DNA of 64,000 nucleotides, taken from contig OZ237738.1 of NCBI GenBank assembly GCA_965178125.1, forward strand, positions 806,001 through 870,000, given 5' to 3'. The notes under the pieces are model-generated. The model worked only from the letters and a program-made list of their open reading frames with translations. It made no database searches and was not told where the DNA came from. The DNA is from Bilabrum cf. latius (lineage: Eukaryota). Positions 5,891 through 63,740 of the stretch are shown here, one piece after another. A program made the translations under genes and the position numbers. How positions within the stretch are numbered: the first letter of the stretch is position 1; each line of letters begins with the position of its first letter.

Positions 5891-6585
5891 GTGCAGTTAA
5901 CATCGTGAGTGGTAGTTCTGCATTGGACTTTTCTGGTGCTGTTACTGTTTCGTCCGGATCTGCGACGAGTGGTTCATCTGGTCTCTTGTCGTTGACCACC
6001 GGTTAGTCTACTGTGGCTGGGTCCGGATGGCTAGTTTTGTCTACAGGTGCCGCAACTGGAGCAACGGCTGGATCTCTAAGTATTACAGCCGGATCGTCGT
6101 TCGGCGGTGTTGGCGCAGATGTCCATATCACAGGTGGGTCATCATCCACTGGGGTCGGTGGAGACGTCATAATTCGACCTGGAACTGGAAGCAGTGATGC
6201 TAATGTGGGGGGAGTGCGAATTGGAGATTCGGGTACCAACATGCAGAGCTTCATCTACGGGGAGGTGACCCTTACGTTCACGTCCGTAACGACAGTTGCT
6301 GCGGACACTACAGAGACCGGCGCTGCAGCAACATTCCCAACAACGGATTTGCCGGAATACTTCCAGGTCGACTCGACAGACTTCATCATGCTGCAGCCAC
6401 TGTTTGCTGCAAACATGCAGATCTTCGTGACCTCGATATCTTCGTCCGGGGGGACTCCGTCGCGTGGGTCTCCACCAACCACGAGGACGCTCACTGTGAC
6501 CGTGACCAACTTCGATGATACAGTTAGCTTAACGGCTCATTCAGGTGGGTTGTATCGGATTGTGGTTATCAAGACAGTTGTGTGA
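1..6585 (+). CDS. Giant Ser/Gly/Val/Ala-rich tandem-repeat protein with 15-aa modules, probable beta-solenoid; 5' end lies outside the window
   Basis: ORF 1..6006 and ORF 6013..6585 are in the same frame, separated only by TAG at 6004-6006 (LTTG*STVAGSG). The 15-aa VxVxSG periodicity continues past the TAG, then a non-repetitive C-terminal domain ends at TGA TGA. Confidence 0.8.
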
Positions 6586-7710
6586 TGACGACTTGCGAGG
6601 TTTTGGGGTGAAACATGTTCGTTGGTGAGGCCATCAAGGTCTCTGAGATTGAGGTCGCGCGGTGGGCCCAGGACCCGCTCGAGATGCAGGCTCGGATGCG
6701 ACGTAGCGACGTGGTGGAGAGAGAGCGCGGTTAATGAGGCCAGGTTAGTGATGAAGCGCTGGCGCGGCGGCTAGGGCAGGCGAGGGTGGGAACGAGGGCA
6801 GGGTAGAGAGGGCGGTGACGGTTCACCAAGCGGGTGAGGGAGTAGTAGTGGAAGAGAAGATGATTGGTGGGGTCACCGGGTTGATACGGCGGATTGGAAG
6901 GGGGAGGCATAGTTGCGAGTACACGGTGCAGGAAGTCACTTGTTGGTTGAAGTGGCGTGCAACAGTATTAGTAGTCAGCAGAGAAGTAGCCCTGTATTTT
7001 TGTGGTACCTGCTTACTGTTGCTTAGTTGATTGATTGCTGTGAATACATAAGGATATGTGCTATATAGATCTACTAGACTAGGCGTGAGGATTCAGGAAT
7101 CCGAAATTTTCCGGAACCTTGCCAGGCCTACAGACCCAAATTTCAAATTCCGAAATACGGCATAGGGGACTAAAATTTAGTGTATCTTACCACTTCCTGT
7201 CACGGCCAATAGACTTGTTCAGCCAACTAGGGGCCACGGGTCGCGACTTGCCACCCAAGAATCTGAGACCCCCTCCACGCTTTTGCCTAAACTGTTGACA
7301 TTGGGGTTGTCAGCCAATCCAGAATCTGGATTCCAGATTCGAACCAGCCGTCCGAGAGTCTCCTGCTAGAATTCTGCCCGCAACCCCTTCTGACGTCACC
7401 TTCGCCCCGCGCAACCGACGTGACTGGCATCTATCTCTTGTCGGATTCACTGAATGCCTGCTTGCACCTATAAGAAAAATTGAGGCGAATCCATCCTACA
7501 GACTAAACTAACTAGCGATTGAAAGGCAGCTCAAGTCGGCGACGACTAACCCGTCCGGTTGCCTGCGGCAGCACACTTTGTTGGTTTCCCTGCCGTCGAC
7601 ACAGTTCGCGCACGCCACAATGTTACGACCCAATATATGTGGAATGCCACATGGTGCACACATACCAAACGTTGGCAAGACAGCAATTGCAATGCAAGAG
7701 GGGCCGTGAA

Positions 7711-9423
7711 TCATCTGCCAACAGCTGTCGCGATGGTGCCTGCAACAGCAAGCACCAGAGCAATCAGAAGCAGCAAGACTGTTGCTGTCATCACACAGAT
7801 AGATGAGCACTGTTCTGTTTTATACGAAGGGCAAGCTACCCACAAAATCATCGCAGGGAATACGTAAAGCTGGGTGACGCTGATAGTGGCCCCCAAGAAA
7901 CCGAACACGATTGCTACTTGCGGGAAAGCCACCGCCACCACCGCGGGCAGAACCGCCAGAGCAACAGACACCAAAGCAGACTCTACAGACTACGTGCAAC
8001 TAATGCACTATATTGAGCAACAAAACGCCGAATCAGTGCTCCCAAATGACTGCCCAATCGCTGCGGGTGTGTCTGCACTAGGAGAGTATTTAGCAGTACC
8101 GGTCGCAGCATTACACCGCGACTCAGCCGCGACAGTAGGCCCAGCGCCTCTATTAGAAGCAGGGTATAGCGTCCCTTCATAACTACTGGGGGCGCTTCCA
8201 AGCAAGGTGTCCCTTATGGACCGCTCACTTGTGTGGGGTGTCACCTCAGCGTTCGCGGAAGTCCTGGCGCAACGGATCAGATCCAGGAGTGAGAGCTTGC
8301 AAGGGTGCAAAACAACAGGAAAGGCTAGCGCAATATGCAGTGCCATGACTCCCTTGGCAACCTATGCGACAGTATTGTCGAAGCTGAACTCGATCAGAAC
8401 GTCTCCCGATACACCAGGCCCGAAGGCTCGGTAGCCAAGCACTCCTGTCGCCAAGTACAGCGTGACACAGGCAGCTGCCTGGCATGCAATGACGCATGCA
8501 AACCCTATTTTTTCGCCTGAATCAGTTTCCTTGGCAGGTGCTTCCCCAGTTGGCTAATTTCTCACCTGATGATCGGCCAAGGCTCTGAGAGAAGAATGGG
8601 CTGGCGTGCAGCTAGGCTGGCTCAATGCTTTGTCCACTCCCCCCCCTGAAGTATCCTCAGTATTCGCCAGCCGACGATCTGCACTGATCGGATCAGGTGG
8701 GCCGTCAGGAGGTTGAGCATCCGAGGCCTCTCTCCACTTAACAGAAAAACCGTGAACCACAGGGACAAGCTACAGATGATTCCCTAGACTAAAAACAATT
8801 ATAGGTATCCCTTGAAACACGTCCAGTACAGGGCTTTCTGATGGGTGCTGCGACGACGGATAGTTGCGGCTATTGCCAGTCTCCGCCAGTCCTACAACCG
8901 CGGCGACGAACACAATTGAAAGTACTGCAATAACACTGGAAAACCACAATTCTTGGATTTTTTCCGAGAACGCCAGGGGGGTTACGAGGAGGGAAGCACC
9001 AAGACATATAGCCCACCTCGATCTCGCAATCAAGCACCCTATCGAGCCGGTCGTGCAAAAGTGACTGGAAATACCAGTAGCAAGATCTCCAATAATGATA
9101 TAAAAAGCAATTAGAGCACCAAAGGAGCCTATCAGAATGGTGATCTGCGCTAGGAGTCGAGCTCGACTGCCGAGATACACTTCAACGATATCCTCGTATG
9201 TTCCTGTGGAGGATCGACTAGATTTGGCGCGCCAGTAGGCATCAGCTAGTACTCCCAAGGTAAAGCTGTTCAGAACTGAAAAGGCTAGGGTCGCTAAAAT
9301 GGCTCCAGCAAGGCCGCACCGTGCCACTGCGAACGGATAGCTCAGCATTCCAGCTCCAGCAGCTGCAATCAAAAGGTTTGATGTAGCTCCAAAATAATCG
9401 ACAAATCTGGAGCAGGTACACAT
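7711..9423 (-). CDS. Amino-acid transporter, Aa_trans (SLC38/AVT-like) family
   Basis: Motifs NLLIAAAGAGMLSYPFAVARCG, TYEDI, IPIIVFSLGNHL, GYRAFG..V.GDVL, FPVVLHP, VFGFLGAT..YVFPA. ORFs 8770-9501, 8554-8760, 8008-8346 and 7711-7974 share one frame, joined by TAGs at 8770, 8554, 8362, 8008 and 7990. Ends at TGA. Start ATG is approximate. Confidence 0.88.
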
Positions 9424-9542
9424 CGAACTCTGTGTCCACTGCGGTGGAAGAATGCACATGTTCGAATCCAGGCAAGCAGATTGGCGATTCGGAATGTCCA
9501 AAACTAGGACATTATTTTTTCGTGCAGCACACGGCCGAAACC

Positions 9543-10316
9543 ATGCAAATGCACAAAGGCGAATTCGGAACTGAGGAGGACTTACAAAACCTTGAAATTG
9601 TGGAGGAGCAGCTTCGGGAACTTGAGGGCAAAGTGAAACAGCTGAGGCGCTCGAATTTAGAAATGACGAAATTCATGGCAGAAAATGGAGAAGATGACGA
9701 CTTCATTCAAGCAATCAGAGACAATGAAACTGTAATAGCTAGATATGACGCACAAGTTGCTCGGCTTAGGGATGTATTCAGGGAGCTACAGTCCATGCAT
9801 GCTATTGGCTCGGGAGGGTCTGCTTCTGAGATCCCGTCTGGTGGGGCACCTGGCAGCGTAGATGGACTTCTCACCCCTCCGAACTCAAGAAAGGGAGTAA
9901 GACATCTCGCGGTGTCGGCGCAGGATCAGCCAGACCTCGCTCCAAGCCAGGCTGATCCCGAGGCTGCAAAGTCGTTGTTTATATCAGGTGAACCGCAACG
10001 TGAAGGGAGACTAACGTTGATTGATCCCAAAAAGGGAATTGGTCGCCAGGATTTACGCAAGGCTCTTGCGGAATCATTGCCACATGAGTCGATGGCACAT
10101 CTACCAGCACTGGCAGGCGGCAACGATGCCTCAGCACCTTCAAAAACAGGTGAAACGCACGACAGCAGCGCCAAGCCAACATAGGAGATCGGAATGGTAG
10201 GTGCAACTGGGCGAGGCGTGGCTCTTGGACAGCCTGTAATCGATGGTGAGGCCTCGGCAGGACCGGAGTCTGGCTCATCTCCGCCGAGTGCCACCGCCGG
10301 TAGCATACAATTGTGA
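9543..10316 (+). CDS. Hypothetical protein with N-terminal coiled coil
   Basis: ATG 9543. Heptad-like segment LEIVEEQLRELEGKVKQLRRSNLEM...FIQAIRDNETVIARYDAQVARLR. One internal TAG at 10182-10184, then an open frame to TGA 10314-10316. Confidence 0.65.
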
Positions 10317-10919: not shown

Positions 10920-13900
10920 TTAGCAAATGCTGCAGCACCCGCCACAGCACTTCTCAGGCCGCCTGGCTCGAATCTGCTCCCAGATGAGCTATGGGTCCTT
11001 GAGGTACGGCAATGCGTTCGGAGCCTCGCGACCAGTGCCTGGCGGCCCGATCAAACCCTCTTCCTTCGTCTGGTTGGCTGCGTATTGCGAAGGCACTATC
11101 TCGACTGAGAGCAGCACCTCGATTGGATGGCCCTCGGTTGGCGCACCACCGTGGCGCTGCCTAGCGTGCACACCGAGCTTGCGTGCAGCCGCCAGCTTGG
11201 ACTTCCCGTCTGCCGTAGCCTTGCCAAGATCTTCGGGTTTCTTGTAAACGGCAAGACCATTGCCTTCTTGCACGGCTTCCTCCTTAGCACCAGCGACGGC
11301 TGATTCCGCGCCCTGGTTGCTCCGAGTAGCCGCAGCCTTTGAGACGTTTCCAGCTGAAGCAGATGCAGCAGCCTTGGCTTCTTCGATATTCTTCCTCTCT
11401 TCATCCTCCTTCATTGCCAACTCTTCATCGCCTTCAAAGTCCTCTTCGTTCAGGTGCGCCAACGGCTTCCTCGTCGTGCGGAGCGGAAGCCAAGCCATCG
11501 GCCACTAAGACTCCTGGACACCGTAGTGGCCTCTCTCGGGCACAACCCTCGTCCTCTACATGGGGCGCAGGCTAGCACGCTTCACCAGATCAGATATATC
11601 CAGCATGCCAGCGCCGAGAGGCCGCCAGCGTCGCGCCCAGCACTCGTTGCGAGAATCAGTGCCGGCCGCCGTCATCTTGCGCCTGAACTCGGCCTCGACC
11701 TCCTTGTAGCTTGTAGCTCGGTCGTTCGCAGCTTCGTTCTCGGGCAAAGACTCGCACACCTCCATCATCAGAGGGCCAGGTAGCTCCAAGCGACCCCAGC
11801 GCGCGTACTGCATCGGCATCCGCATTCTCCAATTGAAGAAACCGTGGTACGGCTGAGGAGCGCCCGGCACCTGGTACGCCCCAATGGCATCCAAGAAACG
11901 CTGCTGTTTCTCCCTCCTTTCTCTTCTCCGACGCTGCGCCGGGGTTTCATTATCTGGAATTTCCGGTCCACCTTTCTTCTTCGCCGTTACCGCCTTCGTG
12001 CCGGGCGGAGCGGTGCGTTGGAGGTAATCCTGCCTCCTCTTCTCCGCCTCTCTCTTGGCCCACTCGAGCTCAGCGTCAAAATCGTCCAGGCCCAGCTCGT
12101 CCTCGCTCGGTCTGGTCGCTGTGCCCGCTGCATCGTTCTTCGCGTGCCTGCCCTTTGCAATATCTATCGCATGGAAGAGGTCCCTAGCCTCCCAAGCTGG
12201 GAGGTTCACCGCCGTGCACGACCGCTGCTCGCCAGGGTACCGCACTCTCTCGGCTCCGTCCTGCATGCGGGTGAGACGAGATGCCCTCTCGTAGTCGATC
12301 CCGCGCTTGTGCAGCCAGGTGCGAAAGAAGTACGGGACGGGTCCCTCACGGTCAGGCACCAGCTCTGGGAGGTACCGCACCCTCCACACAACCACTCTGA
12401 TCTCCATTTCCATGGGAGGAGGCGGCCGAACCATGAGGGGTGGGAACTTCTTCGCCATCTCTTGCTGGAGGATATCAACCCAGCATTGCACGCTGCCAAC
12501 CTCGTGGCCGTTTGCATTGCGGAGCGTTCGGGTCTCCAGCGGCATCACACGCATCCTAGTGTCGTGCGCGTACTTCTACCCCAGGCTGTGCCAGGCAGGG
12601 TGCAACCAGCGCTGCTCAAGATCCACCATGAAGCCGCCAAGAAGCTGCTGCCGCACCGTCCTCCGCTTCTTGTCAGCTGCAGCAACGTCCCCAACAGTCA
12701 AGTCAGTGGCCTTCTCGACGATCGCGCTCGCAATCTGGCTTCCTACCGGAAGCATCTTAGCGGCTTGGCCGGTGGCCTGCAGCGCGCTGGACGCGGCATG
12801 CTTGTTGGCAGCCTTCTTCTGCTCCTCTGCCGCGTTCTCCTGCTCACTCGCAGCGATTTCTTCCAACTCTTCGTCGGAATCCAGCACGACGTCTTCCTCC
12901 ACAAGAATCTCTTCTTCCTCGTCATCGTCTTCCGATGATTCAGAGTCGCTTCCGTCCAAGTCTTCATCGGCAGTGGCGAGTTCCATCTCCCGCTGTGTCC
13001 GAATTACTTCCATTGCGGACTTGATCACTTCGCGTCGCTTCTTTTTGAGCGCAGCCGTGCGCTTCTTCTTCAGCCGCCTCTCCTTTCTGTCAGAGGCGCG
13101 AAGCCTTCGAGTAGTCTCAAAGCCAGGCGCGAACGCGGAGTACGGCTTGTCCACGTTGTCTCGAGCCTCTTTCTCTCGACGGGCAATCCGAACCTGCGCG
13201 GGGGAGTACCCATCTTCACCCCTAGACCATGCCTCGACTGTGAGCACTCCGATGGAGGGCATCGGCACGTCCAGCTCGACGCACTCGAAGACATCGACCT
13301 CAGCGGCGTCCTCGTTCATCCACCCACCAACACCACGCGCCTCCTCGAAGCCATACTGTAGGCCGGGGTCCCCGCTCACGACAAGCGTGGAGCTTCTCGG
13401 CTTGAGCTCCACCGACTTGCCGCCAAGATGGACCCGCCAAACCACGCGCTTAGACGACCGCACAGGCTGCACCGGAGCCATTGGGAAGAGCTCATCGGCG
13501 TATACGTAGTCAAGCGCGCGGACAGGCGGAAGTCCAGGCACCTTAACAACTGGCACGAGCTGACTTGCACCTGTGCCTTCCAGAGCAACGTCATCGTCCC
13601 CATCGCCCAGCTCCTCCGGCAGAGTTCCGCTCACCAGTGACTGCACCATCCTGCCGACCTCGCTGTTTGGGTCCACGTCATTCACTGCCAAGCTGAGCTT
13701 GCGTGCGGTTGAACTCGCAGGGCTGCTAGAGAGGTCCGGCATTTCGAGCCCACCCATGTCACCCAGTGACTACTTCCCACGATAACCACCACTGGCGCCC
13801 CCCATGCGCGAATCCGCGGCGGCCGCCGCACCGCCACCACCAGACATTCCCTTGCCTTTCTCATCTGGCGCGTTTGCGAGAGACTCGCTGGCTTCTTGTA

Positions 13901-16900
13901 CGCTCTAGCCGGGTTGAGGGCGCACCTCGATGCCAAACCTACTGTGGAAGCGCATATTCTTAGTGACAGGCTTCGCAAGCGGCGGACCGCCTTGGTTCCA
14001 CAGCTGCAGCTGCGACTCGAACGCGTCTTCATCCAGTTTCTGCTGCTTGCGGACGCCACCGAGTAGCCCGTTCGCCGCGTGGCCTTGCTCCGACGTCTTG
14101 GAAACGAGCTTAGCCGCATGGTTACGCCGCCATGCCTCCACAAGACGACTATTCTCCGTCTCCCACACCCCGGGGAAGAACAAGTCCCTAGGGAACCTGG
14201 CCACGAGCAGGTAGACTCGAACCTTCACCATTTGAGGCTTGGATGCCAGGCCAAGGATGTGCTCTATGCGGGGTGAAATGGCTTTGTACATCGGGGTGAC
14301 GCTCTGCGGCCTGCCTTCCCCACGAAGAATCGAGTCCATCTCGGCTTGCTTCTACTCCTCAGTCAGGGCGCGCTGGTACCGGATGTTGTCATCAATGAGC
14401 TTCACGAAACCGCGCACTATCCCAGCGCGCTGATACCCCGCCGGCCTTGCGCTTCCGGTGTTCACCACCTCCGCACGACGGAACAGGATGTAGTCACGGA
14501 ACACGGAAGGCGACAGCGGCAGCACGATGCCGAGAGGGAACCGGAGGGCATCTCGATCCTTCATATACGGGGGGTAGTCCTTTCGGTTGGCCTGTGCCTT
14601 CATGGCCCAGTTGTCCCGCACCCTGTCTGACATTTTTGATGCGGCCATCTCCTTCTCCTCTTGCTTTGTCGTGAGCTTCTCGTCTTCCGTCAAAGTCGCC
14701 GCCCCTCCGACAGCATGACCGTCCTCTGCTCCACTCTTGCCGCTTCCCTTGCCGGCATCGGGAGAGTTGGCTGCTTCCTTTCGCTTGCGTTCTTCTTCGT
14801 CAAGCTCTGCCCACGTCCTAGTGCGGAATTTCTCGTTGGTAGCATCAGATGCGTCGGCACCAGCAGCACCCTTCTTGTCCAGACCCAACGCGTGGCGTCG
14901 CTGCGCCACGTTGGGGACAAGTAGGGCATCCATGGCAGAGCCAGATCCGGGGGCGGGCAGCCCATCTGCATTCTATCCTGCAGCCGCGAGGATCCGTAGC
15001 CTTCTCCGCCTCCTCACCCATCTCTGCACCATGCCGGCTGCCACATTAGGCAGGGCTGACATCAGCAGCGACATTGACCGCTTCATCTTCTGGCTCGCTC
15101 TCTTGCGATCCGCCTTGTTCTCCTCGTCTTCGGGGCCAGTCAAACCAGTTGCCCGGGCCAGCATCCGCTTCATATCGGCGTTGCTAGCGCTGGATTGCAC
15201 CTCGGTGCTCTCAAAGACGTCAGCTTCAAGCTCCTTGTCCGAAGGGCCCAAGTCACTCGGCCCAGCGGCCGTACCCAGGCGGTCTGAGTAAGTTGCATTG
15301 GCTTGCTGCACTGCCAGCGCCTTTTTGGCGGCTTGGGCGGCCTTCAAAGCGCTGTACTTTACGTACGGGATCTTGTCCGTGGGAATTGGGATTGAGGCAT
15401 CGGCCAGCGTCTCGACCATATCGCCGCCGAACATGCCGAGCAAACCTCCGCCTTGCTGGCCGCTGCCGGTTGTGAGGGCCAGGTGGAGTCTTGGTGAGAT
15501 GCGTGCCAGCCACGGGTGTGTCTTGACCTTGCGAGGATCCTGCGTGACTGCCATGTCTATCTCCTCCTCCAACTCGGCCATTCTAGCAGCGTTAACGCCT
15601 GCACCAGCACGGGCTGCAGCTGACTTGGAACCTTTGCCGCCGCGCTGCTTCTTCAATCGATTTCGCTCTCGGATCTCCCGGATAAGGGCAGCGCGCGATT
15701 TCGGGGCACCGCTTGCTTCGCCCTTTTCTCGCCTTCGCTTGGCCTTCTTCAACAGCTCAGAATCGTCCAGCGGCAGCCAGCTCTTCATTTCGATCTTTTT
15801 GCAGTAATAATACCGGCCTACGTAGAGATCATCAAGCTTACTGGTCACGCTAGAGGCAGACGCTGCAGCGGGCGAGAAGCCGGCTGCCGCTGCCATGGTG
15901 AGCCTAGGGCCGGGTATGGTCCTGCCGGCCTTGCCACCCGCACCACCACCACCGATGGACTGCGCCGCCTTCTTTGCAGCAGCAGACACTGCCTTCCCCA
16001 GGCGTTGCAGCAGCCCAAGCATTCCTGTAGAGGTTCCATCGTCGTCTGCAGTGGGCATCTTCGCAACCTTCGCAGTATTCGGAACGCCAGGTACGTTTGT
16101 CAGTGCGTACTGCAGCGATGGCGACTTTGCCTTGGTTCCATCCGGATTGACGACATTTCGCGCATGCAACAGCACGATGAGCGCCTTGACTGGTCGCTTC
16201 GATGGGAGAAGCGTGGTTGCGGGCTGGATAGGGATCGGGATGCCCTTCGTAACGAAGAGCTGGCGCCCCTTGCTGTCCACATTCGTCTCGTCCACTTTGA
16301 AGATCCGCGGGATCAGCTGCATGCTCGCAAGCACTTCTGGTCGGGCTGGGAAGCTATTTCCAACGATGCCCATCTGCATGTTGTGCATGATACGGTGCGC
16401 GGCCTTTCTAAGCTGCCTCAGGCGTTGCAGCCGTCCTGCAACGAGCGGATCGTCAATCTGACTTTCGCCTCGCTGGATGCGCTCCTCTTCCCTCCGCACA
16501 AGCTCCGTTGTAAGGCGTTCAAGCTGCGGCTTTCCCTGCTTCACGCTGTCACCTACCTGCTGTCGAGTGGTAGCCACTGCCACAGCACCCATCCCTGTTG
16601 ACTAGGTCTTGGCAATGCGAAGAAGGTGCGAGTTGCGAGAGGCGCGAATGGCCTTGGTAGAGCTGTCTGGAATGTCTCGGTCCGCACGAGCTGCCCTAGG
16701 TACAACCGTACTGGCTCTTTGCACAGTAAGGCCCGGGGCCGGTTCTATCACAGGCAAGTCATCTGGAACAGCCGAGCCTACCGCTTCGGGTCTAATCGGA
16801 GCAGACTCGGAGCGAGCCGGTACTGCCGACTTGGGCAGTTCTTCATCCATCTCATAAGCTTCTCTCCTAGATTCTACGGCTCGTAGCTTGGCTTGTCTCC

Positions 16901-51326: not shown

Positions 51327-51707
51327 GCACGGACAGGGGCGCGGCGGCCAGGGAACCTCGGGGCTAAGCGCGCCCATGCAGGGAGTCAAGCAGGGAGGCC
51401 GGGAGGCAGAGTCGAGCATGACATCTCCACAAGCCTACCCCACAAGAACACCCGATATATATTTTAGGGGGGGGAACCCAACCCATCCTAGCACGGACAG
51501 GGGCACGGTGGCCAGGGAATCCCGGGGCTAAGCGCGCCCATGCAGGGAGTCGTGCGGCGAGGCCGAGGAGCCGAGTCTAGCATGACCCTTCCACGAACCA
51601 GCACCGCAAGAACACCACTTTGAGAAAGAGGAACCCAACCCATCCTAGCACGGACAGGGGCACAGCGGCCAGGGAACCACGGGGCTAAGCGCGCCCATGC
51701 AGGAGCG
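51327..51707 (+). repeat. Three ~160-bp-period repeats inside a ~640-bp segment present only in triplication copy 1
   Basis: AGCACGGACAGGGGC..GGCCAGGGAA..CGGGGCTAAGCGCGCCCATGCAGG at ~51327, 51490 and 51647. Confidence 0.85.
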
Positions 51708-52221
51708 GAGCACAGCAACTGAAATACACGCAATCTCGGCCCGCAGGGCCGAGCACAAACAGACAAACAAAGAATAATAAAAGCGAAGGGAATACACACG
51801 ACATGTTGACCCCCATACCTTACCTTTGTACGGCTGGGGTCTGCTGTATTTACGAAGGAGTGGGGCGCGCAGGGTTTGCAGCTAGTGCCTGCGTAAAGTA
51901 ACGTGCCATTCCCTCTAGAATGCAATATAGCCTGCAGCGATAAGCATATTTTCGCTTTGCCATCGGATCGGGGTGCCTTTGTGCGCCTGCATTGATCGCA
52001 AGCAGTCTGTGCTAGATCTGTGGTGAGCAGGGTCGATCGGCGCCGTGGACTTGCTGGCAGTGTGGGCTGGAGCCGCTTGGCGGGAGATCTGAGAGCAGGT
52101 CGATCCTCCATCAGGCTGGGGGCTCGCGGTCCTTGCATCAAGTGGTGTGACTCAGGTGTAAGCGACATTGGCATAAAGGCTTGGTAAGGTGTTTGAAGCT
52201 CAGTGTGTGTGATTGCTGGGA

Positions 52222-53766
52222 ATGGCCCAGAGTAGTGCAGCATCCGATGTGATCGATCTCGTGAGCGAGTCTAGCTGTAGCGACACGGAAAGCGACTAGG
52301 ATGAATCCTGGTCGTAGGATGCTGCCACGATCACACGTCCATTGCGCCAAGCGCATGCCGGTAGCCGAGGGCAGGCAAGACGTCAGCAGGCTTAGTAGTA
52401 CGGGCCAGCATCCGCCAAGGAGTCAAGCGCGAATGGAGCTTTGTCATCTGGCAGCAGCAAGGAAGTGTTGGCATTGTGTGGGTCAATGTCAGCAGCTGGC
52501 GCGCGGGAGTCTGCATCTGCATCTGCATGTGCATCGCTTGGGCGGAAGAGGTCGAGGGGCCGAGAAGTTGACGATCCAGTGCGTTCGAGTGGTGGTGCAG
52601 TCGCTTCCAAGAGACGGCGCAGAGAGGGAGGATCAGATGCGAGCTAGCATGAGTGCGAGGTGTGTGGGAAGGTGCTGAGCTCGATGAGAAACTTGCTGCA
52701 GCATGTGACTGTGGTGCACTTGGGTGAGCGCAATCACGAGTGCGAGGTGTGTGGCAAGCGCTTCGGGGTGGCAGGTACTCTCAAGGCGCACATGAGGACT
52801 GTGCATGTTGGGGAGCGCAATCACGAGTGCAGTGTGTGCGGCAAGCGCTTCGGGGTGGCAGGCGATCTCAAAAAGCACATGAGGACTGTGCATGTTGGGG
52901 AGCGCAATCACGAGTGCATGGAGTGCGGCAAGCGCTTCGGGGAGGCAGGCGATCTCAAAAAGCACATGAGGACAGTGCATCTTGGGGAGCGCAATCACGA
53001 GTGCAGTGTGTGCGGCAAGCGCTTCGGGCAGGCAGGCCATCTCAGGACGCACATGAGGACAGTGCATCTTGGGGAGCGCAATCACGAGTGCAGTGTGTGC
53101 AGGAAGCGCTTTGGGGTGGGTGGCCATCTCAGGACGCACATGATGACTGTGCATGTTGGGGAGCGCAATCACGAGTGCAGTGTGTGCGGCAAGCGCTTCG
53201 GGCAGGCAGGTCATCTCACATAGCACATGATGACTGTGCATCTTGGGGAGCGCAATCACGAGTGCATGGAGTGCGGCAAGCGCTTCGGGGAGGCAGGCGA
53301 TCTCAAAAAGCACATGAGGACAGTGCATCTTGGGGAGCGCAATCACGAGTGCAGTGTGTGCGGCAAGCGCTTCGGGCAGGCAGGTCATCTCACATAGCAC
53401 ATGAGGACTGTGCATCTTGGGGAGCGCAATCACGAGTGCAGTGTGTGCGGCAAGCGCTTCGGGCAGGCAGGCAATCTCAGGACGCACATGAGGACTGTGC
53501 ATGTTGGGGAGCGCAATCACGAGTGCAGTGTGTGCGGCAAGCGCTTCGGGGTGGCAGGGGATCTCAGGAGGCACATGAGGACTGTGCATGTTGGGGAGCG
53601 CAATCACGAGTGCAGTGTGTGCGGCAAGCGCTTCGGGGTGGCAGGGGATCTCAGGAGGCACATGAGGACTGTGCATGTTGGGGAGCGCAATCACGAGTGC
53701 ATGGAGTGCGGCAAGCGCTTCGGGGTGGCAGGCAATCTCAAGAGGCACATGAGGACTGTGCATTGA
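52222..53766 (+). CDS. C2H2 zinc-finger array protein, copy 1 (13 fingers)
   Basis: ATG 52222 (MAQSSAASDVIDLVSESS), basic NLS-like RKRSR..KRRRR, then 87-bp/29-aa CxxC..HxxxxH-LGERN repeats. Only TAG interruptions (e.g. 52645, 53221, 53395). Ends at TGA. Confidence 0.88.
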
Positions 53767-54090
53767 TTGGTGATGGGCCATAGCTGCCGATTGCGGTGTG
53801 CATGAGTTGGACCTCCATCAGCTCAGCTCTCGAGCATGCAGCAATGCGCGACTTCGGCTTTCCCCTTCCACCCAGCACCAGGACAATGCCCGAGTCCTCG
53901 CCAGGACACGGCATCTGCTGCACGCTATGCATGCCATGGTATAGCAGCTGCTTGGTGAGATCCGGTAGTGGTGGATAGATCGTCGTGCGTGCGTTTGCTC
54001 CTGCGTGGCCATGCAGCAGGACGTGCTGGCTCACCATGGCAATCAAGGCTGGGGCATCCGTCCAGGTGATGTCGCTCGCTGCCTGCTGCC

Positions 54091-55086
54091 GTGCTGGGCA
54101 AGACAGAGGTGCGCCCGTTGTGGGTGTGCCGGTGGGACGCCCAGCTGGATGTAGCTCGCATGGAGGAGCAGAAGAGAGACGAGATGGGCCGCGGGTCCAG
54201 GAAGAGGGCGAGGGTGACGTACGCCGAGGAGCTGACGGACCGCGAGTTCCTTCGGCTGGCAGACAAGGGGGCCTCTGAGGAGGAGATGGAGGTGGCCAGG
54301 GCCAGGAAGAGGATCAGGATGCGGCTGCTGAGCGCGGAGGCGGCTGGTGAGGACCTGGGCAAGGCTGGTGAGGAGGCCGAGAGGGAGGCCATGGAGAGCC
54401 TGAAGGAGGACCTGGGCAAGGCTGGTGAGGAGGCCGAGAGAGAGGCCATGGAGAGCCTGAAGGAGGACCCAGTGGCCGCGCAGGTGGCAGAGGAGGAGAG
54501 GGCGAGGGAGGACAAGAGGGCCAGGAAGAGGGAGAGGGAGAGGGCACGCAGACAGAAGCTCAAGGACCAGGTCAAGCCCGACTAGGAGCCGGACGCCATC
54601 GACGCGGAGGCCATCCCGTCGGACCCCGTGGAGCTGCGGCGGCGCGCGGACGTGTGCGACCAGGTGAAGGCGGCTCTGTCCTTGATTCGGAGGCAGACGG
54701 ACGAGCACGGGCATCCTTTGTGCGGGTTGTTTGAGCGCGAGCCTGACATCCAGCTGTACCCTCGGTACTATGACGTGGTGAAGCGGCCCATTGCCTTGGA
54801 CTCGATGGACCGGCGGGCCGCGGAGCTGAGGTACAGGTCCACGGAGCGTTTCCTGGCGGATGTTGGTCAGATGAGGAACAACGGGTATCAGTTCAATGGG
54901 GAGGGGTCCACGGTGCGGGTGCTGGCGGACCGCATCTTGGGGATGGCGCGGCGGCAGCTAGCGAGCGACCATGAGGGAGAGGGCGAGGGCGCGGGGAGGG
55001 CAGGCCCTGCTTGTGCGTCCGGTGGGGGACCTGTGCGTGTGGGTTCGTCGGCTTGTGGTATGTCGGCTGCCATGGAGGAGGGTTGA
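54091..55086 (+). other. 5'-truncated duplicate of the SNF2 C-terminus (bromodomain only); pseudogene or short gene
   Basis: Near-identical to 50205-51140, frame intact through the same TAG (54583-54585), carries an extra in-frame 57-bp duplication, lacks the ATPase. Confidence 0.8.
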
Positions 55087-55524
55087 TGTGTTTTTGCATG
55101 GATGTGGACGTGTGCGCATTACCCATTGTTCGGTTACGCTTGACCAGCGAGTATGAGGCACGTGCGGGTCTGCTTGGAGCGGCTAGCTTTGGTCCCTCAG
55201 GGGAATCGCGCGTTACTTTGTGAGTAAAGCAGATGATAATCAGATTCCACATTTTCACTTTGCCATCGGGTCGGGGTGCCTGTGTGCGCCTGCATTGATC
55301 GCAAGCAGTCTGTGCTAGATCTGTGGTGAGCAGGGTCGATCGGCGCCGTGGACTTGCTGGCAGTGTGGGCTGGAACTGCTTGGCGGGAGATCTGACAGCA
55401 GGTCGATCCTCCATCAGGCTGGGGACCCGCGGTCCCTGCATCAAGTGGTGTGATTCAGGTGTAAGCGACATTGGCACAAAGGCTTGGTAAGGTGTTTGAA
55501 GCTCAGTGTGTGTGATTGCTGGGA

Positions 55525-57591
55525 ATGGCCCAGAGTAGTGCAGCATCCGATGTGATCGATCTCGTGAGCGAGTCTAGCTGTAGTGACACGGAAAGCGACT
55601 AGGATGAATCCTGGTCGTAGGATGCTGCCACGATCACACGTCCATTGCGCCAAGCGCATGCCGGTAGCCGAGGGCGGGCAAGAAGTCAGCAGGCTTAGTA
55701 GTACGGGCCGGCATCCGCCAAGGAGTCAAGCGTGAATGGAGCTTTGGCATCTGGCAGCAGCAAGGAAGTGTTGGCATTGTGTGTGTCAATGTCAGCAGCT
55801 GGCGCGCGGGAGTCTGCATCTGCATCTGCATCTGCATCGCTTGGGCGGAAGAGGTCCAGGGGCCGAGAAGTTGACGAGCCAGTGCGTTCGAGTGGTGGTG
55901 CAGTCGCTTCCAAGAGACGGCGCAGAGAGGGGGGATCAGATGCGAGCTAGCATGAGTGCGAGGTGTGTGGGAAGGTGCTGAGCTCGATGAGAAACTTGCT
56001 GCAGCATGTGACTGTGGTGCACTTGGGTGAGCGCAATCACGAGTGCAGTGTGTGCGGCAAGCGCTTCGGGCAGGCAGGCCATCTCACAAGGCACATGAGG
56101 ACTGTGCATGTTGGGGAGCGCAATCACGAGTGCAGTGTGTGCGGCAAGCGCTTCGGGGAGGCAGGCGATCTCAAAAAGCACATGAGGACAGTGCATGTTG
56201 GGGAGCGCAATCACGAGTGCAGTGTGTGCGGCAAGCGCTTCGGGCTGGCAGGCCATCTCACAAAGCACATGAGGACAGTGCATGTTGGGGAGCGCAATCA
56301 CGAGTGCAGTGTGTGCAGGAAGCGCTTTGGGGTGGGTGGCCATCTCAGGACGCACATGATGACTGTGCATCTGGGGGAGCGCAATCACGAGTGCAGTGTG
56401 TGCGGCAAGCGCTTCGGGCAGGCAGGTCATCTCACATAGCACATGATGACTGTGCATCTTGGGGAGCGCAATCACGAGTGCAGTGTGTGCGGCAAGCGCT
56501 TCGGGCAGGCAGGCAGTCTCAGGACGCACATGAGGACTGTGCATCTTGGGGAGCGCAATCACGAGTGCAGTGTGTGCGGCAAGCGCTTCGGGCAGGCAGG
56601 CAGTCTCAGGACGCACATGAGGACTGTGCATCTTGGGGAGCGCAATCACGAGTGCAGTGTGTGCGGCAAGCGCTTCGGGGAGGCAGGCAGTCTCAAGAAG
56701 CATATGAGGACTGTGCATCTTGGGGAGCGCAATCACGAGTGCAGTGTGTGCGGTAAGTGCTTCGGGGTGGCAGGTCATCTCAGAAAGCACATGATGACTG
56801 TGCATGTTGGGGAGCGCAATCACGAGTGCAGTGTGTGCGGCAAGCGCTTCGGGGAGGCAGGCAACCTCAAGACGCACATGATGACTGTGCATCTGGGGGA
56901 GCGCAATCACGAGTGTTTGGAGTGCGGCAAGCGCTTCGGGCAAGCAGGCCATCTCAAGAGGCACATGAGGACTGTGCATCTTGGGGAGCGCAATCACGAG
57001 TGCAGTGTGTGCGGCAAGCGCTTCGGGGTGGCAGGCCATCTCAGAAAGCACATGAGGACTGTGCATGTTGGGGAGCGCAATCACGAGTGCAGTGTGTGCG
57101 GCAAGCGCTTCGGGGAGGCAGGCGATCTCACAAAGCACATGAGGACAGTGCATCTTGGGGAGCGCAATCACGAGTGTAGTGTGTGCGGCAAGCGCTTCGG
57201 GGAGGCAGGCAGTCTCAGGACGCACATGAGGACTGTGCATGTTGGGGAGCGCAATCACGAGTGCAGTGTGTGCGGCAAGCGCTTCAGGGAGGCAGGCCAT
57301 CTCAAGAGGCACATGAGGACTGTGCATGTTGGGGAGCGCAATCACGAGTGCAGTGTGTGCGGCAAGCGCTTCAGGGAGGCAGGCCATCTCAAGAGGCACA
57401 TGAGGACAGTGCATGTTGGGGAGCGCAATCACGAGTGCAGTGTGTGCGGCAAGCGCTTCGGGGTGGCAGGCAGTCTCAAGACGCACATGAGGACTGTGCA
57501 TGTTGGGGAGCGCAATCACGAGTGCAGTGTGTGCGGGAAGCGCTTCGGGGTGGCAGGCAGTCTCAAGAGGCACATGAGCAGAGTGCATTGA
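55525..57591 (+). CDS. C2H2 zinc-finger array protein, copy 2 (19 fingers)
   Basis: Same N-terminus as copy 1, 87-bp repeats, TAGs at 55948 and 56437 and in the N-terminal region. Ends at TGA. Confidence 0.88.
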
Positions 57592-57919
57592 TTGGTGATG
57601 GGCCATAGCTGTCGATTGCGGTGTGCATGAGTTGGACCTCCGTCAGCTCTGCTGTCTAGTAAGCAGCAATGCGCGACCTCAGCCTCCCCCTCGACCCAGC
57701 ACCAGGACAATGCCCCGAGTCCTAGCCAGGGCACGAAAAGCAGCTGCTGCACGCTATGCATGCCATGGTATAGCAGCTGCTTGGTGAGATCCTGTGGTGG
57801 TGGAGAGGTCGTCGTGCAAGTGTTTGCTCCTGCGTGGCCATGCAGCAGGACGTGCTGGCTCACCATGGCAATCAAGGCTGGGGCATCTGTCCAGGTGATG
57901 TTGCTCGCTGCCTGCTGCC

Positions 57920-58858
57920 GTGCTGGGCAAGACAGAGGTGCCCCCGTTGTGGGTGTGCCGTTGGGACGACCAGCTGGATGTAGCTCGCATGGAGGAGCAG
58001 AGGAGGGACGAGATGGGCCGCGGGTCTAGGAAGAGGGCGAGGGTGACGTACGCCGAGGAGCTGACGGACCGCGAGTTCCTTCGGCTGGCAGACAAGGGGG
58101 CCTCTGAGGAGGAGATGGAGGTGGCCAGGGCGAGGAAGAGGATCAGGATGCGGCTGCTGAGCGCGGAGGCGGCTGGTGAGGACCTGGGCAAGGCTGGTGA
58201 GGAGGCCGAGAGAGAGGCCATGGAGAGCCTGAAGGAGGACCCAGTGGCCGCGCAGGTGGCAGAGGAGGAGAGGGCGAGGGAGGAGAAGAGGGCCAGGAAG
58301 AGGGAGAGGGAGAGGGCACGCAGACAGAAGCTCAAGGACCAGGTCAAGCCCGACTAGGAGCCGGACGCCATCGACGCGGAGGCCATCCCGTCGGACCCCG
58401 TGGAGCTGCGGCGGCGCGCGGACGTGTGCGACCAGGTGAAGGCGGCTCTGTCCTTGATTCGGAGGCAGACGGACGAGCACGGGCATCCTTTGTGCGGGTT
58501 GTTTGAGCGCGAGCCTGACATCCAGCTGTACCCTCGGTACTATGACGTGGTGAAGCGGCCCATTGCCTTGGACTCGATGGACCGGCGGGCCGCGGAGCTG
58601 AGGTACAGGTCCACGGAGCGTTTCCTGGCGGATGTTGGTCAGATGAGGAACAACGCGTATCAGTTCAATGGGGAGGGGTCCACGGTGCGGGTGCTGGCGG
58701 ACCGCATCTTGGGGATGGCGCGGCGGCAGCTAGCGAGCGACCATGAGGGAGAGGGCGAGGGCGCGGGGAGGGCAGGCCCTGCTTGTGCGTCCGGTGGGGG
58801 ACCTGTGCGTGTGGGTTCGTCGGCTTGTGGTATGTCGGCTGCCATGGAGGAGGGTTGA
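57920..58858 (+). other. Second 5'-truncated duplicate of the SNF2 C-terminus (bromodomain only)
   Basis: Near-identical to 50205-51140, same TAG at 58355-58357. Ends at TGA. Confidence 0.8.
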
Positions 58859-59298
58859 TGTGTTTTTGCATGGATGTGGACGTGTGCGCATTACCCATTG
58901 TTCGGTTACGCTTGACCAGCGAGTATGAGGCACGTGCGGGTCTGCTCGGAGCAGTGTTATGTCTGGTCCCTCAGGGGAATCGCGCGTTACTTTGTGAGTA
59001 AAGCAGATGATAATCAGATTCCACATTTTCACTTTGCCATCGGGTCGGGGTGCCTGTGTGCGCCTGCATTGATCGCAAGCAGTCTGTGCTAGATCTGTGG
59101 TGAGCAGGGTCGATCGGCGCCGTGGACTTGCTGGCAGTGTGGGCTGGAACTGCTTGGCGGGAGATCTGACAGCAGGTCGATCCTCCATCAGGCTGGGGAC
59201 CCGCGGTCCCTGCATCAAGTGGTGTGATTCAGGTGTAAGCGACATTGGCACAAAGGCTTGGTAAGGTGTTTGAAGCTCAGTGTGTGTGATTGCTGGGA

Positions 59299-60582
59299 AT
59301 GGCCCAGAGTAGTGCAGCATCCGATGTGATCGATCTCGTGAGCGAGTCTAGCTGTAGTGACACGGAAAGCGACTAGGATGAATCCTGGTCGTAGGATGCT
59401 GCCACGATCACACGTCCATTGCGCCAAGCGCATGCCGGTAGCCGAGGGCGGGCAAGAAGTCAGCAGGCTTAGTAGTACGGGCCGGCATCCGCCAAGGAGT
59501 CAAGCGTGAATGGAGCTTTGGCATCTAGCAGCAGCAAGGAAGTGTTGGCATTGTGTGTGTCAATGTCAGCAGCTGGCGCGCGGGAGTCTGCATCTGCATC
59601 TGCATCTGCATCGCTTGGGCGGAAGAGGTCCAGGGGCCGAGAAGTTGACGAGCCAGTGCGTTCGAGTGGTGGTGCAGTCGCTTCCAAGAGACGGCGCAGA
59701 GAGGGAGGATCAGATGCGAGCCAGCATGAGTGCGAGGTGTGTGGGAAGGTGCTGAGCTCGATGAGAAGCTTGCTGCAGCATGTGACTGTGGTGCACTTGG
59801 GGGAGCGCAATCACGAGTGCAGTGTGTGCGGCAAGCGCTTCGGGGTGGCAGGCAGTCTCAGAACGCACATGAGGACTGTGCATGTTGGGGAGCGCAATCA
59901 CGAGTGCAGTGTGTGCGGCAAGCGCTTCGGGCAGGCAGGCAATCTCACAAAGCACATGAGGACTGTGCATGTTGGGGAGCGCAATCACGAGTGCAGTGTG
60001 TGCGGCAAGCGCTTCGGGGAGGCAGGCAGTCTCAGGACGCACATGAGGACTGTGCATGTTGGGGAGCGCAATCACGAGTGCAGTGTGTGCGGCAAGCGCT
60101 TCGGGCAGGCAGGCAGTCTCAAGACGCACATGATGACTGTGCATGTTGGGGAGCGCAATCACGAGTGCAGTGTGTGCGGCAAGCGCTTCGGGCAGGCAGG
60201 CAATCTCACAAAGCACATGAGGACTGTGCATGTTGGGGAGCGCAAGCACGAGTGCAGTGTGTGCGGCAAGCGCTTCGGGGAGGCAGGCAGTCTCAGGACG
60301 CACATGAGGACTGTGCATGTTGGGGAGCGCAATCACGAGTGCAGTGTGTGCGGCAAGCGCTTCGGGGTGGCAGGCCATCTCAAGAGGCACATGAGGACAG
60401 TGCATCTTGGGGAGCGCAATCACGAGTGCAGTGTGTGCGGAAAGCGCTTCGGGCAGGCAGGCGATCTCAAGACGCACATGAGGACTGTGCATGCTGGGGA
60501 GCGCAATCACGAGTGCAGTGTGTGCGGCAAGCGCTTCGGGGTGGCAGGCCATCTCAGGAGGCACATGAGGACTGTGCACTGA
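59299..60582 (+). CDS. C2H2 zinc-finger array protein, copy 3 (10 fingers)
   Basis: ATG 59299, four TAGs in the N-terminal region (including CAG CAG GCT TAG TAG TAC), uninterrupted finger array. Ends at TGA. Confidence 0.9.
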
Positions 60583-60947: not shown

Positions 60948-62730
60948 ATGATCGGTACTCTGTTCGCAATTGCTCTTGCTTCTTTTCCTAGTGCTGATGC
61001 TCGGGGTGCCCTGCACTATGGCCGGCCAGAGGCTGATATCAGATCGACTTGTTCGTTCGAGGAGTGTGGGCAGCCACGTGACCTTTCCTCGCTGCTTCAC
61101 ATACCTGGGGCGGCCAAAAACGCCTCGAAAGTAGATATAGCACCCGGTGGTCATGGTAAGGCATCGAATGGAAGGGTCGTATTCATGCTATGGAGTCCTC
61201 GCTGCACTTAGCAACGCTGTTTGCATCGCGCAGAGCCATCCTCATCGCTCAGACGCTTATCATCTCATATGACGTCAATAACGAATCAGACTCTGTCTCC
61301 TTAATATCATGCATCGCAGCCGGGTTCTTTGAGGTCAACTAGACCCTGGACCAGCACACGTTCTTTTGGTACTTTCCTTCCACCGGATCGGAGACGAAGA
61401 CCCTCACGATCTGGCTGCAGGGTGGCCCCGGCGGGTCGTCTATGTTCGGCCTATTCTCCGAGGTTGGTCCATACAGCCTGAACTCTGCTCTTGAGCTCGA
61501 GCCCAGGAAGACAACTTGGCGAACCGACACGAACGCGCTCCTTGCCATCGATAATCCGCCGGGGACTGGATACTCGTACGTGGGCGAGCACGGGCAATAT
61601 TGCGAGGACTTCACTTGTTACGGGCGTTCCCTGTATGCGTTCATGCAGCAGTTCTACAAGGCCTTTCCCGAGGCGAAGGACTGGGACCTATTCATCACTG
61701 GGGAGTCGTATGCAGGCCACTACATTTCCTCTTTCGGCGCCCACATTGACACGATGAACAAGGCCAAGCTGCCCGATACGGTCCACGTACCTCTCCGCGG
61801 AGTAAGCATTGGAGACGGCTGGATCGACCCTATCAATCAGATGCCCATGTACCCCGCCCTTTTGCAGGCGCAAGGGCTGGCAAACAGCGTGCAGCGCCAG
61901 TTCTGGCAGGAGCAGTGCGATGCCGCCATCAAGGCCATGCAGGAGGGGCGCTACCTGGATTCTTTCACAATCTGGGACCTACTATTAAACGGTGACCTAC
62001 ACAATGGCCAGACGTACTACCACAACACGACGGGAATGACCGACTATGACAACTTCCTGAGGACAGACGCGCCCGTCAGCTTTGGCTATTTCTCCCAGTA
62101 CATGACCCAGCCCTCTGTTCGCAAGGCGCTGGGCGTAGGCAATGCGACCTTTCATTCCGGTCTCGAGGTCGAGAAGCACCTCCTGACAGACTTTATGGTG
62201 ACTCTGCTCCCAGAGTTCATCCAGATCCTCGAGTCGGAGGCGAACTACAGGGTGCTTGTGTACTCTGGTAACCTCGATGTGAGATGGGATGGGATGCTGG
62301 CAAAATGAAGTGTGACGGGTGCTGTGCGGCTTTCGATGTGCCGCATCGCTTACACCCCCGCCCCGCCATGTCCCTGTTCAACAACCGAGTGCTTCCTCTC
62401 CTTCGCATGTATCTCTCACTGCGCTTTCGCTTAGCAAACCTGTATCCCCGTATCCCTATGCTGCCGCAGGTCATCATCGGCGCCCTGCTAACCGACAACT
62501 TCGTGGACAAGATGCAGTGGAGCGGTGCTGCAGAGTACGCCAAGGCGGAGCGTGCCATCTGGAACACCCAAGGGCAGACCGGGGTCTCCGGGTACGTCCG
62601 CCGCGCCAAGAACTTTGCCCGAGCGGTCGTGCGTTCGGCCGGTCACATCGTTCCCTACGACCAGCCGGAGCGTGCCCTAGATATGTTCCTCCGTTTCAAG
62701 AATGGGGAGATGCCATTCTTCTCCGAGTGA
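60948..62730 (+). CDS. Serine carboxypeptidase, peptidase S10 (CPVL-like), secreted
   Basis: Signal peptide MIGTLFAIALASFPSADA; HAGFFEVN*TLDQHTFFWYFP; WLQGGPGGSSMFGLF; IDNPPGTGYSY; catalytic TGESYAG; YSGNLD/VII; AGHIVPYDQP. Introns ~61157-61319 and 62279-62470. TAG at 61340-61342. Ends at TGA. Confidence 0.95.
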
Positions 62731-63219
62731 TCGGGGGCATGACTCCGAGTGAGCATGAGCATGACTCGGAGGGGGTGTGGGTGGGACATCGTGCATTGCA
62801 ACCCTTGAATCGGCATGGATTGCAGTGCGCTGTGGTAAGCGGGGTCGTCGCGTCTTCTGTTGGAGTGTGCAAGGCATGTGCATGCTTTCCTGGAGAAGAC
62901 AAGGGAAAACGTACAGTTGGTGCTCCCGAGGGGCAGATCGATGATAATCGGTGTCCAGCCATAAACGCTGTGGCGCAGGTGCTGATGCACGTGCTGCTTT
63001 TTTGGCCGGTGCAGTTGCTAGACACCGTAGTGTGTGCCAGCAGGCAGGCAACAGGCAGGTGCCACGCTCCTGCCGGTCGCTGGTGGTCTGCTGTAGTGCC
63101 GCTCATCGAAACGCTTCTTTGGAGTAATCGCATATTTTTTGCAGTCATCCGTAGGTCTTTATTGATGGTGTGTTCGCGCATCGCACGCTCTCAAAGTCAC
63201 GAGGCCGACAGGCTCCCGG

Positions 63220-63740
63220 TTATCTCCTGCCCTACTCGCCTTGCTGCGCCACTTCAGCATCCTTAGTGGGGATTTCGCTCCCCAAGAACGATTCGAATGG
63301 ACTATTTTCATCCTAAGTCCTGCTAGATATCAACTGAATGCCAGCCTCTCCAGCACTCTTTTGAAGCTGCGCCAGCTGGGTGACATCGTCGCACAGCGGG
63401 TTGCCTGTCACATCCAGAAATCGAAGTGATTTCGGTGCAAGATCCTCTAGATTGAAACCTGTGATTGCATTGTCTGCTAAAGATAGCGCCTCGAGCTGCG
63501 TGCACTGCTTCCACAGCCCCGCGTGAGCGGATGTCAAGCAGTTGCTCGCTACGTCGACAGCGCACAGCCCGTCCAGGCCAGCAATTGACTCTGGCAGTGC
63601 AGTGAGCATATTTTTCTACAATATCAGAGCCGGTACACAACCTTCCAGCTTTGAAAGCACAACTGCAAGCCTGCAAGCACAAGCCCCACCTAGATGCTAA
63701 CACATTATGTTGCGGCAAAGCAGGTCCTTCGATGCGCGCA
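63220..63740 (-). CDS. Small leucine-rich repeat protein (3' part; start not resolved)
   Basis: ALIL*KNMLTALPESIAGLDGLCAVDVASNCL..LEALSLADNAI..LRFLDVTGNPLC. Frame reads through TAGs (e.g. 63313) to TAA at 63220-63222. Confidence 0.65.

Follow-up and report, generated by a model that had tools for sequence, protein, structure and literature searches.

UAG very probably read as glutamine, with UAA and UGA as stop codons, in a GC-rich and compact eukaryotic genome

Genes of the window and their in-frame TAG codons

The 64-kilobase (kb) stretch of DNA analyzed here, positions 806,001 to 870,000 of contig OZ237738.1 (assembly GCA_965178125.1) and called the window throughout, has a guanine plus cytosine (GC) content of about 60% (about 55–70%). 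With TAG read through, it encodes an amino-acid transporter, a C2-domain protein of 5,067 codons (the giant gene), SF3B1, two 1-Cys-peroxiredoxin-like genes, a leucine-rich-repeat (LRR) gene, an SNF2/Brahma ATPase with a bromodomain, three tandem C2H2 zinc-finger genes, and an S10 carboxypeptidase (Table 1). The presence of spliceosomal introns and the alignment of SF3B1 to human SF3B1 (residues 373–1311, E = 0, with homology flanking the TAG on both sides) identify the window as eukaryotic nuclear DNA, and the genome that it represents is GC-rich, compact, and poor in introns. A preliminary description, made from the letters of the window, had proposed that UAG is a sense codon in this organism, probably for glutamine (Gln), and that UAA and UGA remain stops. 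According to the analyses presented below, this is very probably the cytoplasmic code: UAG specifies Gln, and termination occurs mostly at UGA and otherwise at UAA.

The 10 genes supported by homology contain 67 in-frame TAGs among 13,678 codons, and an eleventh gene contains none. Across all 11 genes, the density of TAG is 0.0047 in frame (67/14,119 codons) versus 0.0050 off-frame (141/28,238). Internal TAA and TGA are both absent from the 14,119 codons; their off-frame counts of 75 and 692, respectively, predict about 37 TAA and 346 TGA. This absence is partly by construction, because the frames were delimited by TAA and TGA; the frames were validated independently by Pfam and by an orthologous locus (see below). 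Reading TAG as sense extends the longest frame of the window from 1,068 to 5,067 codons, and reading TAA as sense hardly changes any frame. The giant frame alone holds 31 TAGs, in line with the earlier count of at least 30 in a frame of about 15 kb, and all coordinates in the preliminary description that were checked proved correct. Pfam or PDB homology continues on both sides of TAGs; in the SNF2 gene, for instance, the TAG at 50637 precedes the bromodomain. Within the 10 genes, TAG makes up 67 of the 498 Gln-type codons (13%), the others being CAG (343) and CAA (88). The base 3′ of the sense TAGs is unbiased (C 20, G 16, T 16, A 15).

A syntenic locus in a relative

A metagenome contig of 19,961 nucleotides (nt) and 56% GC (L001), reached via the protein-search fragment P0129, carries the giant and transporter genes in the same order as the window. 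Its giant gene has 5,081 codons up to a TGA stop, in a frame that stays open only when its 50 TAGs are read as sense. Its transporter orthologue (17456–19453) contains 13 TAGs and stops at TAA, and reading TAA as sense lengthens no frame of this contig appreciably. Across 4,960 aligned codons, the giant proteins of the window and L001 share 69.5% identity, which does not drop after any TAG, and the differences per codon position are 0.26/0.19/0.61. The two giant genes have only two TAG positions in common, which is the expectation from saturated synonymous sites. As the use of TAG as sense is common to at least two further relatives, it is older than their split.

Transcripts and selection

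Contigs of four runs (X1, X5, X6, and X8) were compared with positions 11200–31190 of the window; the runs that contain the window stretch carry the labels algae or protist metagenome. Run X1 is DNA-like, contiguous, and identical to the window. The contigs of X5 and X6, which stem from two studies other than that of the DNA source X1, skip the intron of SF3B1, and those of X5 also skip both introns in the 5′ part of the giant gene (Table 1). The skipped gaps start with GTGAG and end with CAG on the gene strand and are retained in X1, so that the X5 and X6 contigs appear to be RNA-derived. The spliced contig also revealed a first exon of SF3B1 upstream of its intron, and further 5′ exons of the giant gene extend up to about 26645. 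Pieces of X5 cover 11200–22872, 22923–26104, and 26736–30967 with no differing letter and include all 32 TAG sites of the compared stretch. Since spliced transcript contigs keep every one of these TAGs unchanged, the messenger RNA (mRNA) carries UAG. A relative is represented in run X8, which differs from the window at 1,149 positions in about 20 kb; of the 40 differences that were listed, 34 concern third positions of codons in the giant frame. The TAGs thus sit in real, expressed genes under purifying selection.

These data bear directly on the possibility that the TAGs are artefacts, whether of assembly or sequencing error, pseudogenes, editing, or splicing; of these, the preliminary description had named assembly error, editing, and splicing as grounds for abandoning its claim. 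Contigs of three studies (X1, X5, and X6) agree letter by letter, the spliced transcripts of two of these studies retain 32 of 32 TAGs, purifying selection is strong across the TAGs, and the relative has its own, different TAGs. No evidence supporting an artefact was found in these comparisons, and its probability is negligible; assembly error, editing, and splicing can be set aside as sources of the TAGs.

The residue specified by UAG

The residue was assessed in well-aligned columns of the window and L001, defined as those with at least 6 of 10 flanking residues identical (n = 50). Opposite TAG in one of the two, the other has Gln in 30 columns, Ala in four, Arg, Lys, and Asp in three each, His in two, and Leu, Ile, Glu, Thr, and Ser in one each. 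The Gln codons concerned are CAG in 21 cases and CAA in nine, so that TAG is interchangeable with both between these relatives; since two substitutions separate CAA from TAG, mutational nearness alone fails as an explanation. When each candidate amino acid was given the substitution profile measured on the same alignment, the log-likelihood was −85 for Gln, −177 for His, −192 for Glu, and −202 for Lys, a lead of about 90 units for Gln over the next residue, and the ranking was the same at stricter filters. When all aligned columns are taken, 40 of the 92 TAGs (0.43) have a Gln-type codon opposite them, as compared to 0.57 for CAG and 0.54 for CAA; the corresponding fractions are 0.04 for GAG, 0.03 for AAG, 0.007 for TAC, and 0 for TGG.

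Database protein fragments from closer relatives, 93–99% identical to the window, provide a second line of evidence. They were called under a standard-type code, because they start with Met at a Val codon of the window and four of nine end at a window TAG (the remaining five end at Gln in three cases and at Lys in two). At residues 905, 1087, 2976, 3717, and 3924 of the giant protein, each encoded by TAG in the window, the relatives read Gln, Lys, Gln, Gln, and Gln, respectively. Including residue 1050 of SF3B1, where the near-identical protein P0003 has KNRHQAVQE and the window KNRH-TAG-AVQE, the relatives' calls give Gln at five of six window TAG sites. The earlier assignment to Gln is therefore supported by both the syntenic orthologue and the protein calls of relatives. 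Two local clues to it were also found as described: the paralogous zinc-finger genes have GCGAGC-TAG-CAT at 52639–52650 and 55942–55953 versus GCGAGC-CAG-CAT at 59716–59727, and a TAG TAG pair lies in a Gln run, CAGCAGGCTTAGTAG, at 59461–59475. A third clue, that ferlins usually have YQLR where the C2 domain of the giant protein has Y-TAG-LR, held only in part: two homologues have YQVR and YQLR, but the solved structures of myoferlin and dysferlin have YHLR.

UAA and UGA as stop codons

Approximately 13 gene ends in the window and two in L001 were examined, and none of them needs TAG, as had been stated for the window before. TGA terminates 10 of the 11 genes and TAA one; further frames end at TGA (the C-terminal exon of the S10 gene and the 1-Cys peroxiredoxin) or at TAA (the LRR fragment at 63220–63870). 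The end of the giant gene reads ...CCGGCCSIC-TAA in the window and ...CCGGCCSLS-TGA in L001, with the two stops in the same alignment column. Twenty-two codons before this end, the window has a TAG where L001 has CAG, and the sequence beyond it is conserved. Because the gene ends align and the sequence downstream of it is conserved, even this late TAG must be a sense codon and the TAA a genuine terminator. Similarly, the conserved tail of SF3B1, ...YLDLVL, ends at TGA. The proposal that UAA and UGA have remained stops is thus supported, on a small sample, by the absence of internal copies and by the orthologous TAA/TGA gene end.

If the organism used an ordinary code of the NCBI table 6 type, in which UAA and UAG (together UAR) both specify Gln, sense TAA could be rare through high GC, and low counts would be expected given that TAA is the rarest stop trinucleotide (188 copies in the window). 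However, the internal count of zero in 14,119 codons has to be compared with the 75 off-frame copies in the same genes, and the CAA:CAG ratio predicts about 17 internal TAA if this codon were used like TAG. Together with TAA and TGA at the same orthologous gene end, and with frames that TAA as sense does not appreciably lengthen in either the window or L001, this makes a UAR code very improbable.

Evidence against the assignment

Several observations weigh against a code with UAG as Gln and only UAA and UGA as stops. The RNA nature of the X5 and X6 contigs was deduced from their spliced joints, and the run records merely guess RNA. About 13 gene ends are too few to rule out UAG terminators elsewhere in the genome. 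Residues other than Gln stand opposite TAG in 20 of the 50 well-aligned columns, where ordinary Gln codons are themselves conserved at 0.69. Residue 1050 of SF3B1 is Glu in 116, Asp in three, and Gln in one of 120 homologues and, taken alone, favours Glu. TAG alternates with Lys and Arg codons in the zinc fingers, distant homologues (25–45% identical) show mixed residues at TAG sites, and no transfer RNA (tRNA) gene was detected in the 84 kb of the window and L001 that were scanned. The gene for the release factor eRF1 does not lie in the window either.

The small number of gene ends leaves room for an ambiguous or context-dependent code, in which UAG would be Gln inside genes but a stop at a minority of ends. 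Yet no gene here ends at TAG, conserved sequence follows the late TAG of the giant gene, and the conserved SF3B1 tail terminates at TGA; the base after TAG shows no context rule, which is neutral in this respect. On balance, such a code is distinctly improbable.

The SF3B1 position, the zinc-finger alternation, and the Lys of a close relative at residue 1087 of the giant protein would be compatible with a residue other than Gln, for example Glu or Lys, which the preliminary description had left open. Opposite TAG, however, Glu occurs in one and Lys in three of the 50 columns versus 30 for Gln, the log-likelihood gap exceeds 100 units, and GAG and AAG stand opposite Gln-type codons in 4 and 3% of the cases versus 43% for TAG. 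There is only a slight chance that UAG has another meaning than Gln, and Glu and Lys were rejected. With respect to SF3B1, the earlier remark on Glu in animals was correct and extends to 116 of the 120 eukaryotes, but the close relative has an ordinary Gln codon at this site. Elsewhere the motif is KNRH-E-KVQE, and in this lineage the adjoining residue has also changed, from Lys to Ala. Residue 1050 (27983–27985) shows a lineage-specific change from Glu to Gln, which had drawn the preliminary description towards Glu.

Decoding of UAG

The claim that UAG is a sense codon is thus supported by the transcript contigs, the syntenic orthologue, and the protein calls of relatives. In the mechanism that we favour, UAG would be decoded by a tRNA-Gln with the anticodon CUA, and termination would fail to occur at UAG because eRF1 would have lost the ability to read it. 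The CUA anticodon would match UAG and not UAA, and this would account for the uncoupling of the two codons. The same argument has been made for other UAG-only codes (PMC11687900, in the text available), and for Iotanema a GTS>GGS change in eRF1 has been proposed to stop termination at UAG (PMC9161772, in the text available).

Alternatively, a dedicated tRNA with a CUA anticodon may not exist, and tRNA-Gln(CUG) might read UAG as a near-cognate codon with the help of a weakened eRF1. No tRNA(CUA) was seen within the 84 kb scanned, and an analogue is known in the reading of UGA by tRNA-Trp(CCA) with a shortened anticodon stem. According to the available parts of the respective sources, reassignment by near-cognate tRNA-Trp(CCA) occurs in trypanosomatids and ciliates (PMC13092985), and tRNA-Gln can read through UAA and UAG (PMC13192750). 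However, with TAG making up 13% of the Gln-type codons and occurring up to 31 times per gene, decoding would have to be efficient, and tRNAs with the CUA anticodon are described in two of the UAG-reassigned ciliate genomes studied (PMC11687900, in the text available). Near-cognate decoding appears unlikely, and a dedicated tRNA-Gln(CUA) would be the better candidate.

The giant C2-domain protein

Pfam detects one C2 domain in the giant protein and none of the ferlin-specific domains FerI, FerB, and DysF. Among solved structures, this C2 domain best matches synaptotagmin-7, followed by myoferlin and dysferlin. When the last 1,200 residues were submitted to an exhaustive search, many proteins 1,700–2,100 amino acids long matched a second region (residues ~4490–4620) with their C-terminal part; this region may be ferlin-like. 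By sequence similarity, the giant protein would be ferlin-related at most. No hydrophobic C-terminal transmembrane anchor was seen. Instead of such an anchor, the protein has a Cys-rich, CaaX-like tail in both the window (CCGGCCSIC; 10920–11000, minus strand) and L001 (CCGGCCSLS; 15900–15988), which suggests a lipid anchor rather than the transmembrane helix of ferlins. A word search retrieved no full-length homologue. The exhaustive search also returned a metagenome record, P0134, an uninterrupted homologue of 4,294 amino acids and 39% identity that had been predicted with a standard-type code. It may come from a more distant relative in which UAG has remained a stop, and would then help to date the reassignment.

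Other features of the window

The coordinates of the genes and introns are compiled in Table 1. The giant gene and SF3B1 are closely spaced (26645–26777): beyond its TGA, the SF3B1 transcript contig continues for about 40 nt, and some 90 nt separate its end from the earliest observed exon of the next gene. The genome is thus very compact. One X5 contig continues leftwards past the stop of the giant gene for about 1.7 kb.

Table 1. Genes, exons, and introns annotated in the window, with TAG read as a sense codon.
Feature	Position	Strand	Remarks
Repeat-rich Ser/Gly/Ala/Val protein, running off the window start	1–6585	+	1 in-frame TAG at 6004; stop TGA
Aa_trans amino-acid transporter gene	7711–9672	−	Pfam; 5 in-frame TAGs; stop TGA
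Giant C2-domain (ferlin-like) gene	10920–26123	−	5,067 codons; 31 in-frame TAGs; stop TAA at 10920–10922
Spliceosomal intron, 5′ part of giant gene	26105–26219	−	115 nt, GTGAGT...CAG; skipped in X5 contig
Second intron, 5′ part of giant gene	about 26336–26455	−	Skipped in X5 contig
SF3B1, main exon	26777–31132	−	PF08920 and HEAT repeats; TAGs at 30614–30616 and 27983–27985; stop TGA
Spliceosomal intron, SF3B1	30968–31071	−	104 nt, GTGAGC...CAG; spliced out in X5 and X6 contigs, kept in DNA run X1
Leucine-rich-repeat gene	43610–46180	−	Pfam; 5 in-frame TAGs; stop TGA
SNF2/Brahma-type ATPase gene	46857–51140	+	SNF2-rel_dom (1.8e-98), Helicase_C, SnAC, Bromodomain; 5 TAGs; stop TGA
C2H2 zinc-finger gene 1	52213–53766	+	7 in-frame TAGs; stop TGA
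C2H2 zinc-finger gene 2	55516–57591	+	6 in-frame TAGs; stop TGA
C2H2 zinc-finger gene 3	59290–60582	+	4 in-frame TAGs; codon 145 is CAG versus TAG in the two paralogues
Serine carboxypeptidase S10 gene	61160–62730	+	1 in-frame TAG at 61340; stop TGA
LRR gene fragment	63220–63870	−	5 in-frame TAGs; frame stop TAA at 63220–63222

Two arrays of tandem repeats are present. The first (1–5900, plus strand; about 70% GC) consists of a 405-nt unit with sub-periods of 90, 180, and 225 nt and codes for the Ser/Gly/Ala/Val-rich repeat protein, with several frames open; the non-repeat C-terminal domain of this protein (5900–6585) has no Pfam match. The second is a satellite at 31806–36522, between SF3B1 and the peroxiredoxin genes, in which a 123-nt unit (247 nt in an alternative scoring) recurs 38 times with 97% identity; it is open on both strands. 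The two adjoining peroxiredoxin-like genes (40735–42057 and 42765–43394, plus strand) both lack TAG. The latter is a clear 1-Cys peroxiredoxin (AhpC-TSA and 1-cysPrx_C) with an upstream exon, and the former is a divergent peroxiredoxin-like gene with a long low-complexity tail.

The region from about 50100 to 60582 (plus strand) is a segmental triplication of a unit composed of the SNF2 3′ end with the bromodomain and a zinc-finger gene. The SNF2 C-terminus recurs as orphan copies at 54070–55086 and 57899–58858, the last 900 nt of which are 82 and 98% identical, respectively, to the SNF2 3′ end, and the TAG in KPD-TAG-EPD is kept in each orphan copy. The S10 gene has at least two exons, as 61160–62308 and 62272–62730 lie in different frames. 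A search of the window for Rfam families gave no match.

Comparison with known codes and placement of the organism

The code of the window organism corresponds to NCBI table 15. The window has a rather un-ciliate-like look, to our mind, with 64 kb, a dozen genes, and GTGAG introns of 104–120 nt.

UAG and UAA are nearly always reassigned jointly, and a UAG-only change to Gln is described, in the text available of the respective sources, for Iotanema spirale (PMC5304391) and for Protocruzia tuzeti and two phyllopharyngean ciliate lineages (PMC11687900). The code itself is therefore a known variant, already described in several lineages (PMC5304391, PMC11687900). Like the window organism, I. spirale (Fornicata) is a non-ciliate protist in which UAG is Gln and UAA and UGA are stops (PMC5304391, PMC9161772). 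However, UAA is its primary terminator (PMC5304391), whereas TGA ends 10 of the 11 genes here, and it is an anaerobic gut flagellate known from a transcriptome, whereas the window organism has about 60% GC and occurs in runs labelled algae or protist metagenome. P. tuzeti and the two phyllopharyngean lineages likewise combine UAG as Gln with UAA as a stop, but the phyllopharyngean genomes have 27.4–53.6% GC, with UAA as the commonest and UGA as the rarest stop (PMC11687900), in contrast to about 60% GC and the dominance of TGA in the window.

Codes with UAR as Gln, reported for Amoeboaphelidium protococcarum, hexamitin diplomonads, some ulvophytes, and many ciliates (PMC5304391, PMC6299283, PMC11687900, in the text available), share the change from stop to Gln at UAG; there, UAA is Gln as well, whereas TAA is a stop in the window. 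As a possible source of the window, the algal parasite Amoeboaphelidium was considered and rejected, because its genome has about 40% GC (PMC10608142, in the text available) versus about 60% and TAA is a stop here. UAG alone has been reassigned to other residues in the rhizarian exLh and some ciliates (Leu) and in Scotinosphaera (Ser), according to the available text of PMC5304391 and PMC11687900. The window differs from these codes, with Leu and Ser each opposite TAG in one of 50 columns.

An SF3B1 tree (41 rows picked from 122 sequences, calculated with a quick method) grouped the window with P0003 on a branch of great length (1.63) without resolving a sister, and the best named SF3B1 matches (diatoms, a dictyochophyte, oomycetes, and glomeromycotan fungi) all have 56–58% identity. 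No report of a GC-rich or stramenopile lineage with UAG as Gln was found in the literature, in a search that covered subscription journals and supplements poorly. The high GC content and the dominance of TGA stops fit none of the above carriers of a UAG-only Gln code. The window organism is probably a new lineage, one for which this code has not been reported before. Whether it also represents an undescribed independent origin of the UAG-to-Gln change, in a GC-rich protist clade with compact genomes that is neither ciliate nor fornicate, we consider evenly balanced.

Significance

If such an origin is real, the trait is old and common to at least three diverged members of the clade, namely the window organism, its relatives at about 6% DNA divergence, and L001 at about 70% protein identity. 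With UGA as the main stop and UAA rare, an AT-driven loss of UAG would be no obvious explanation for it. A practical consequence is that annotation of the clade requires TAG to be translated as Gln: standard gene callers fragment these genes, and the giant gene of the clade is present in the database only as fragments.

Lineages in which the two codons are uncoupled show that eukaryotic decoding distinguishes UAG from UAA, and they are natural models for amber-suppression engineering (PMC5304391, PMC11687900, in the text available). A further carrier that is GC-rich and not a ciliate would be one more independent case from which to learn how such codes originate, and would test whether the eRF1 GTS change of Iotanema has recurred. 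As both DNA and transcript data exist, this clade might also, if the independent origin holds, become a tractable non-ciliate system for studying the discrimination between UAG and UAA.

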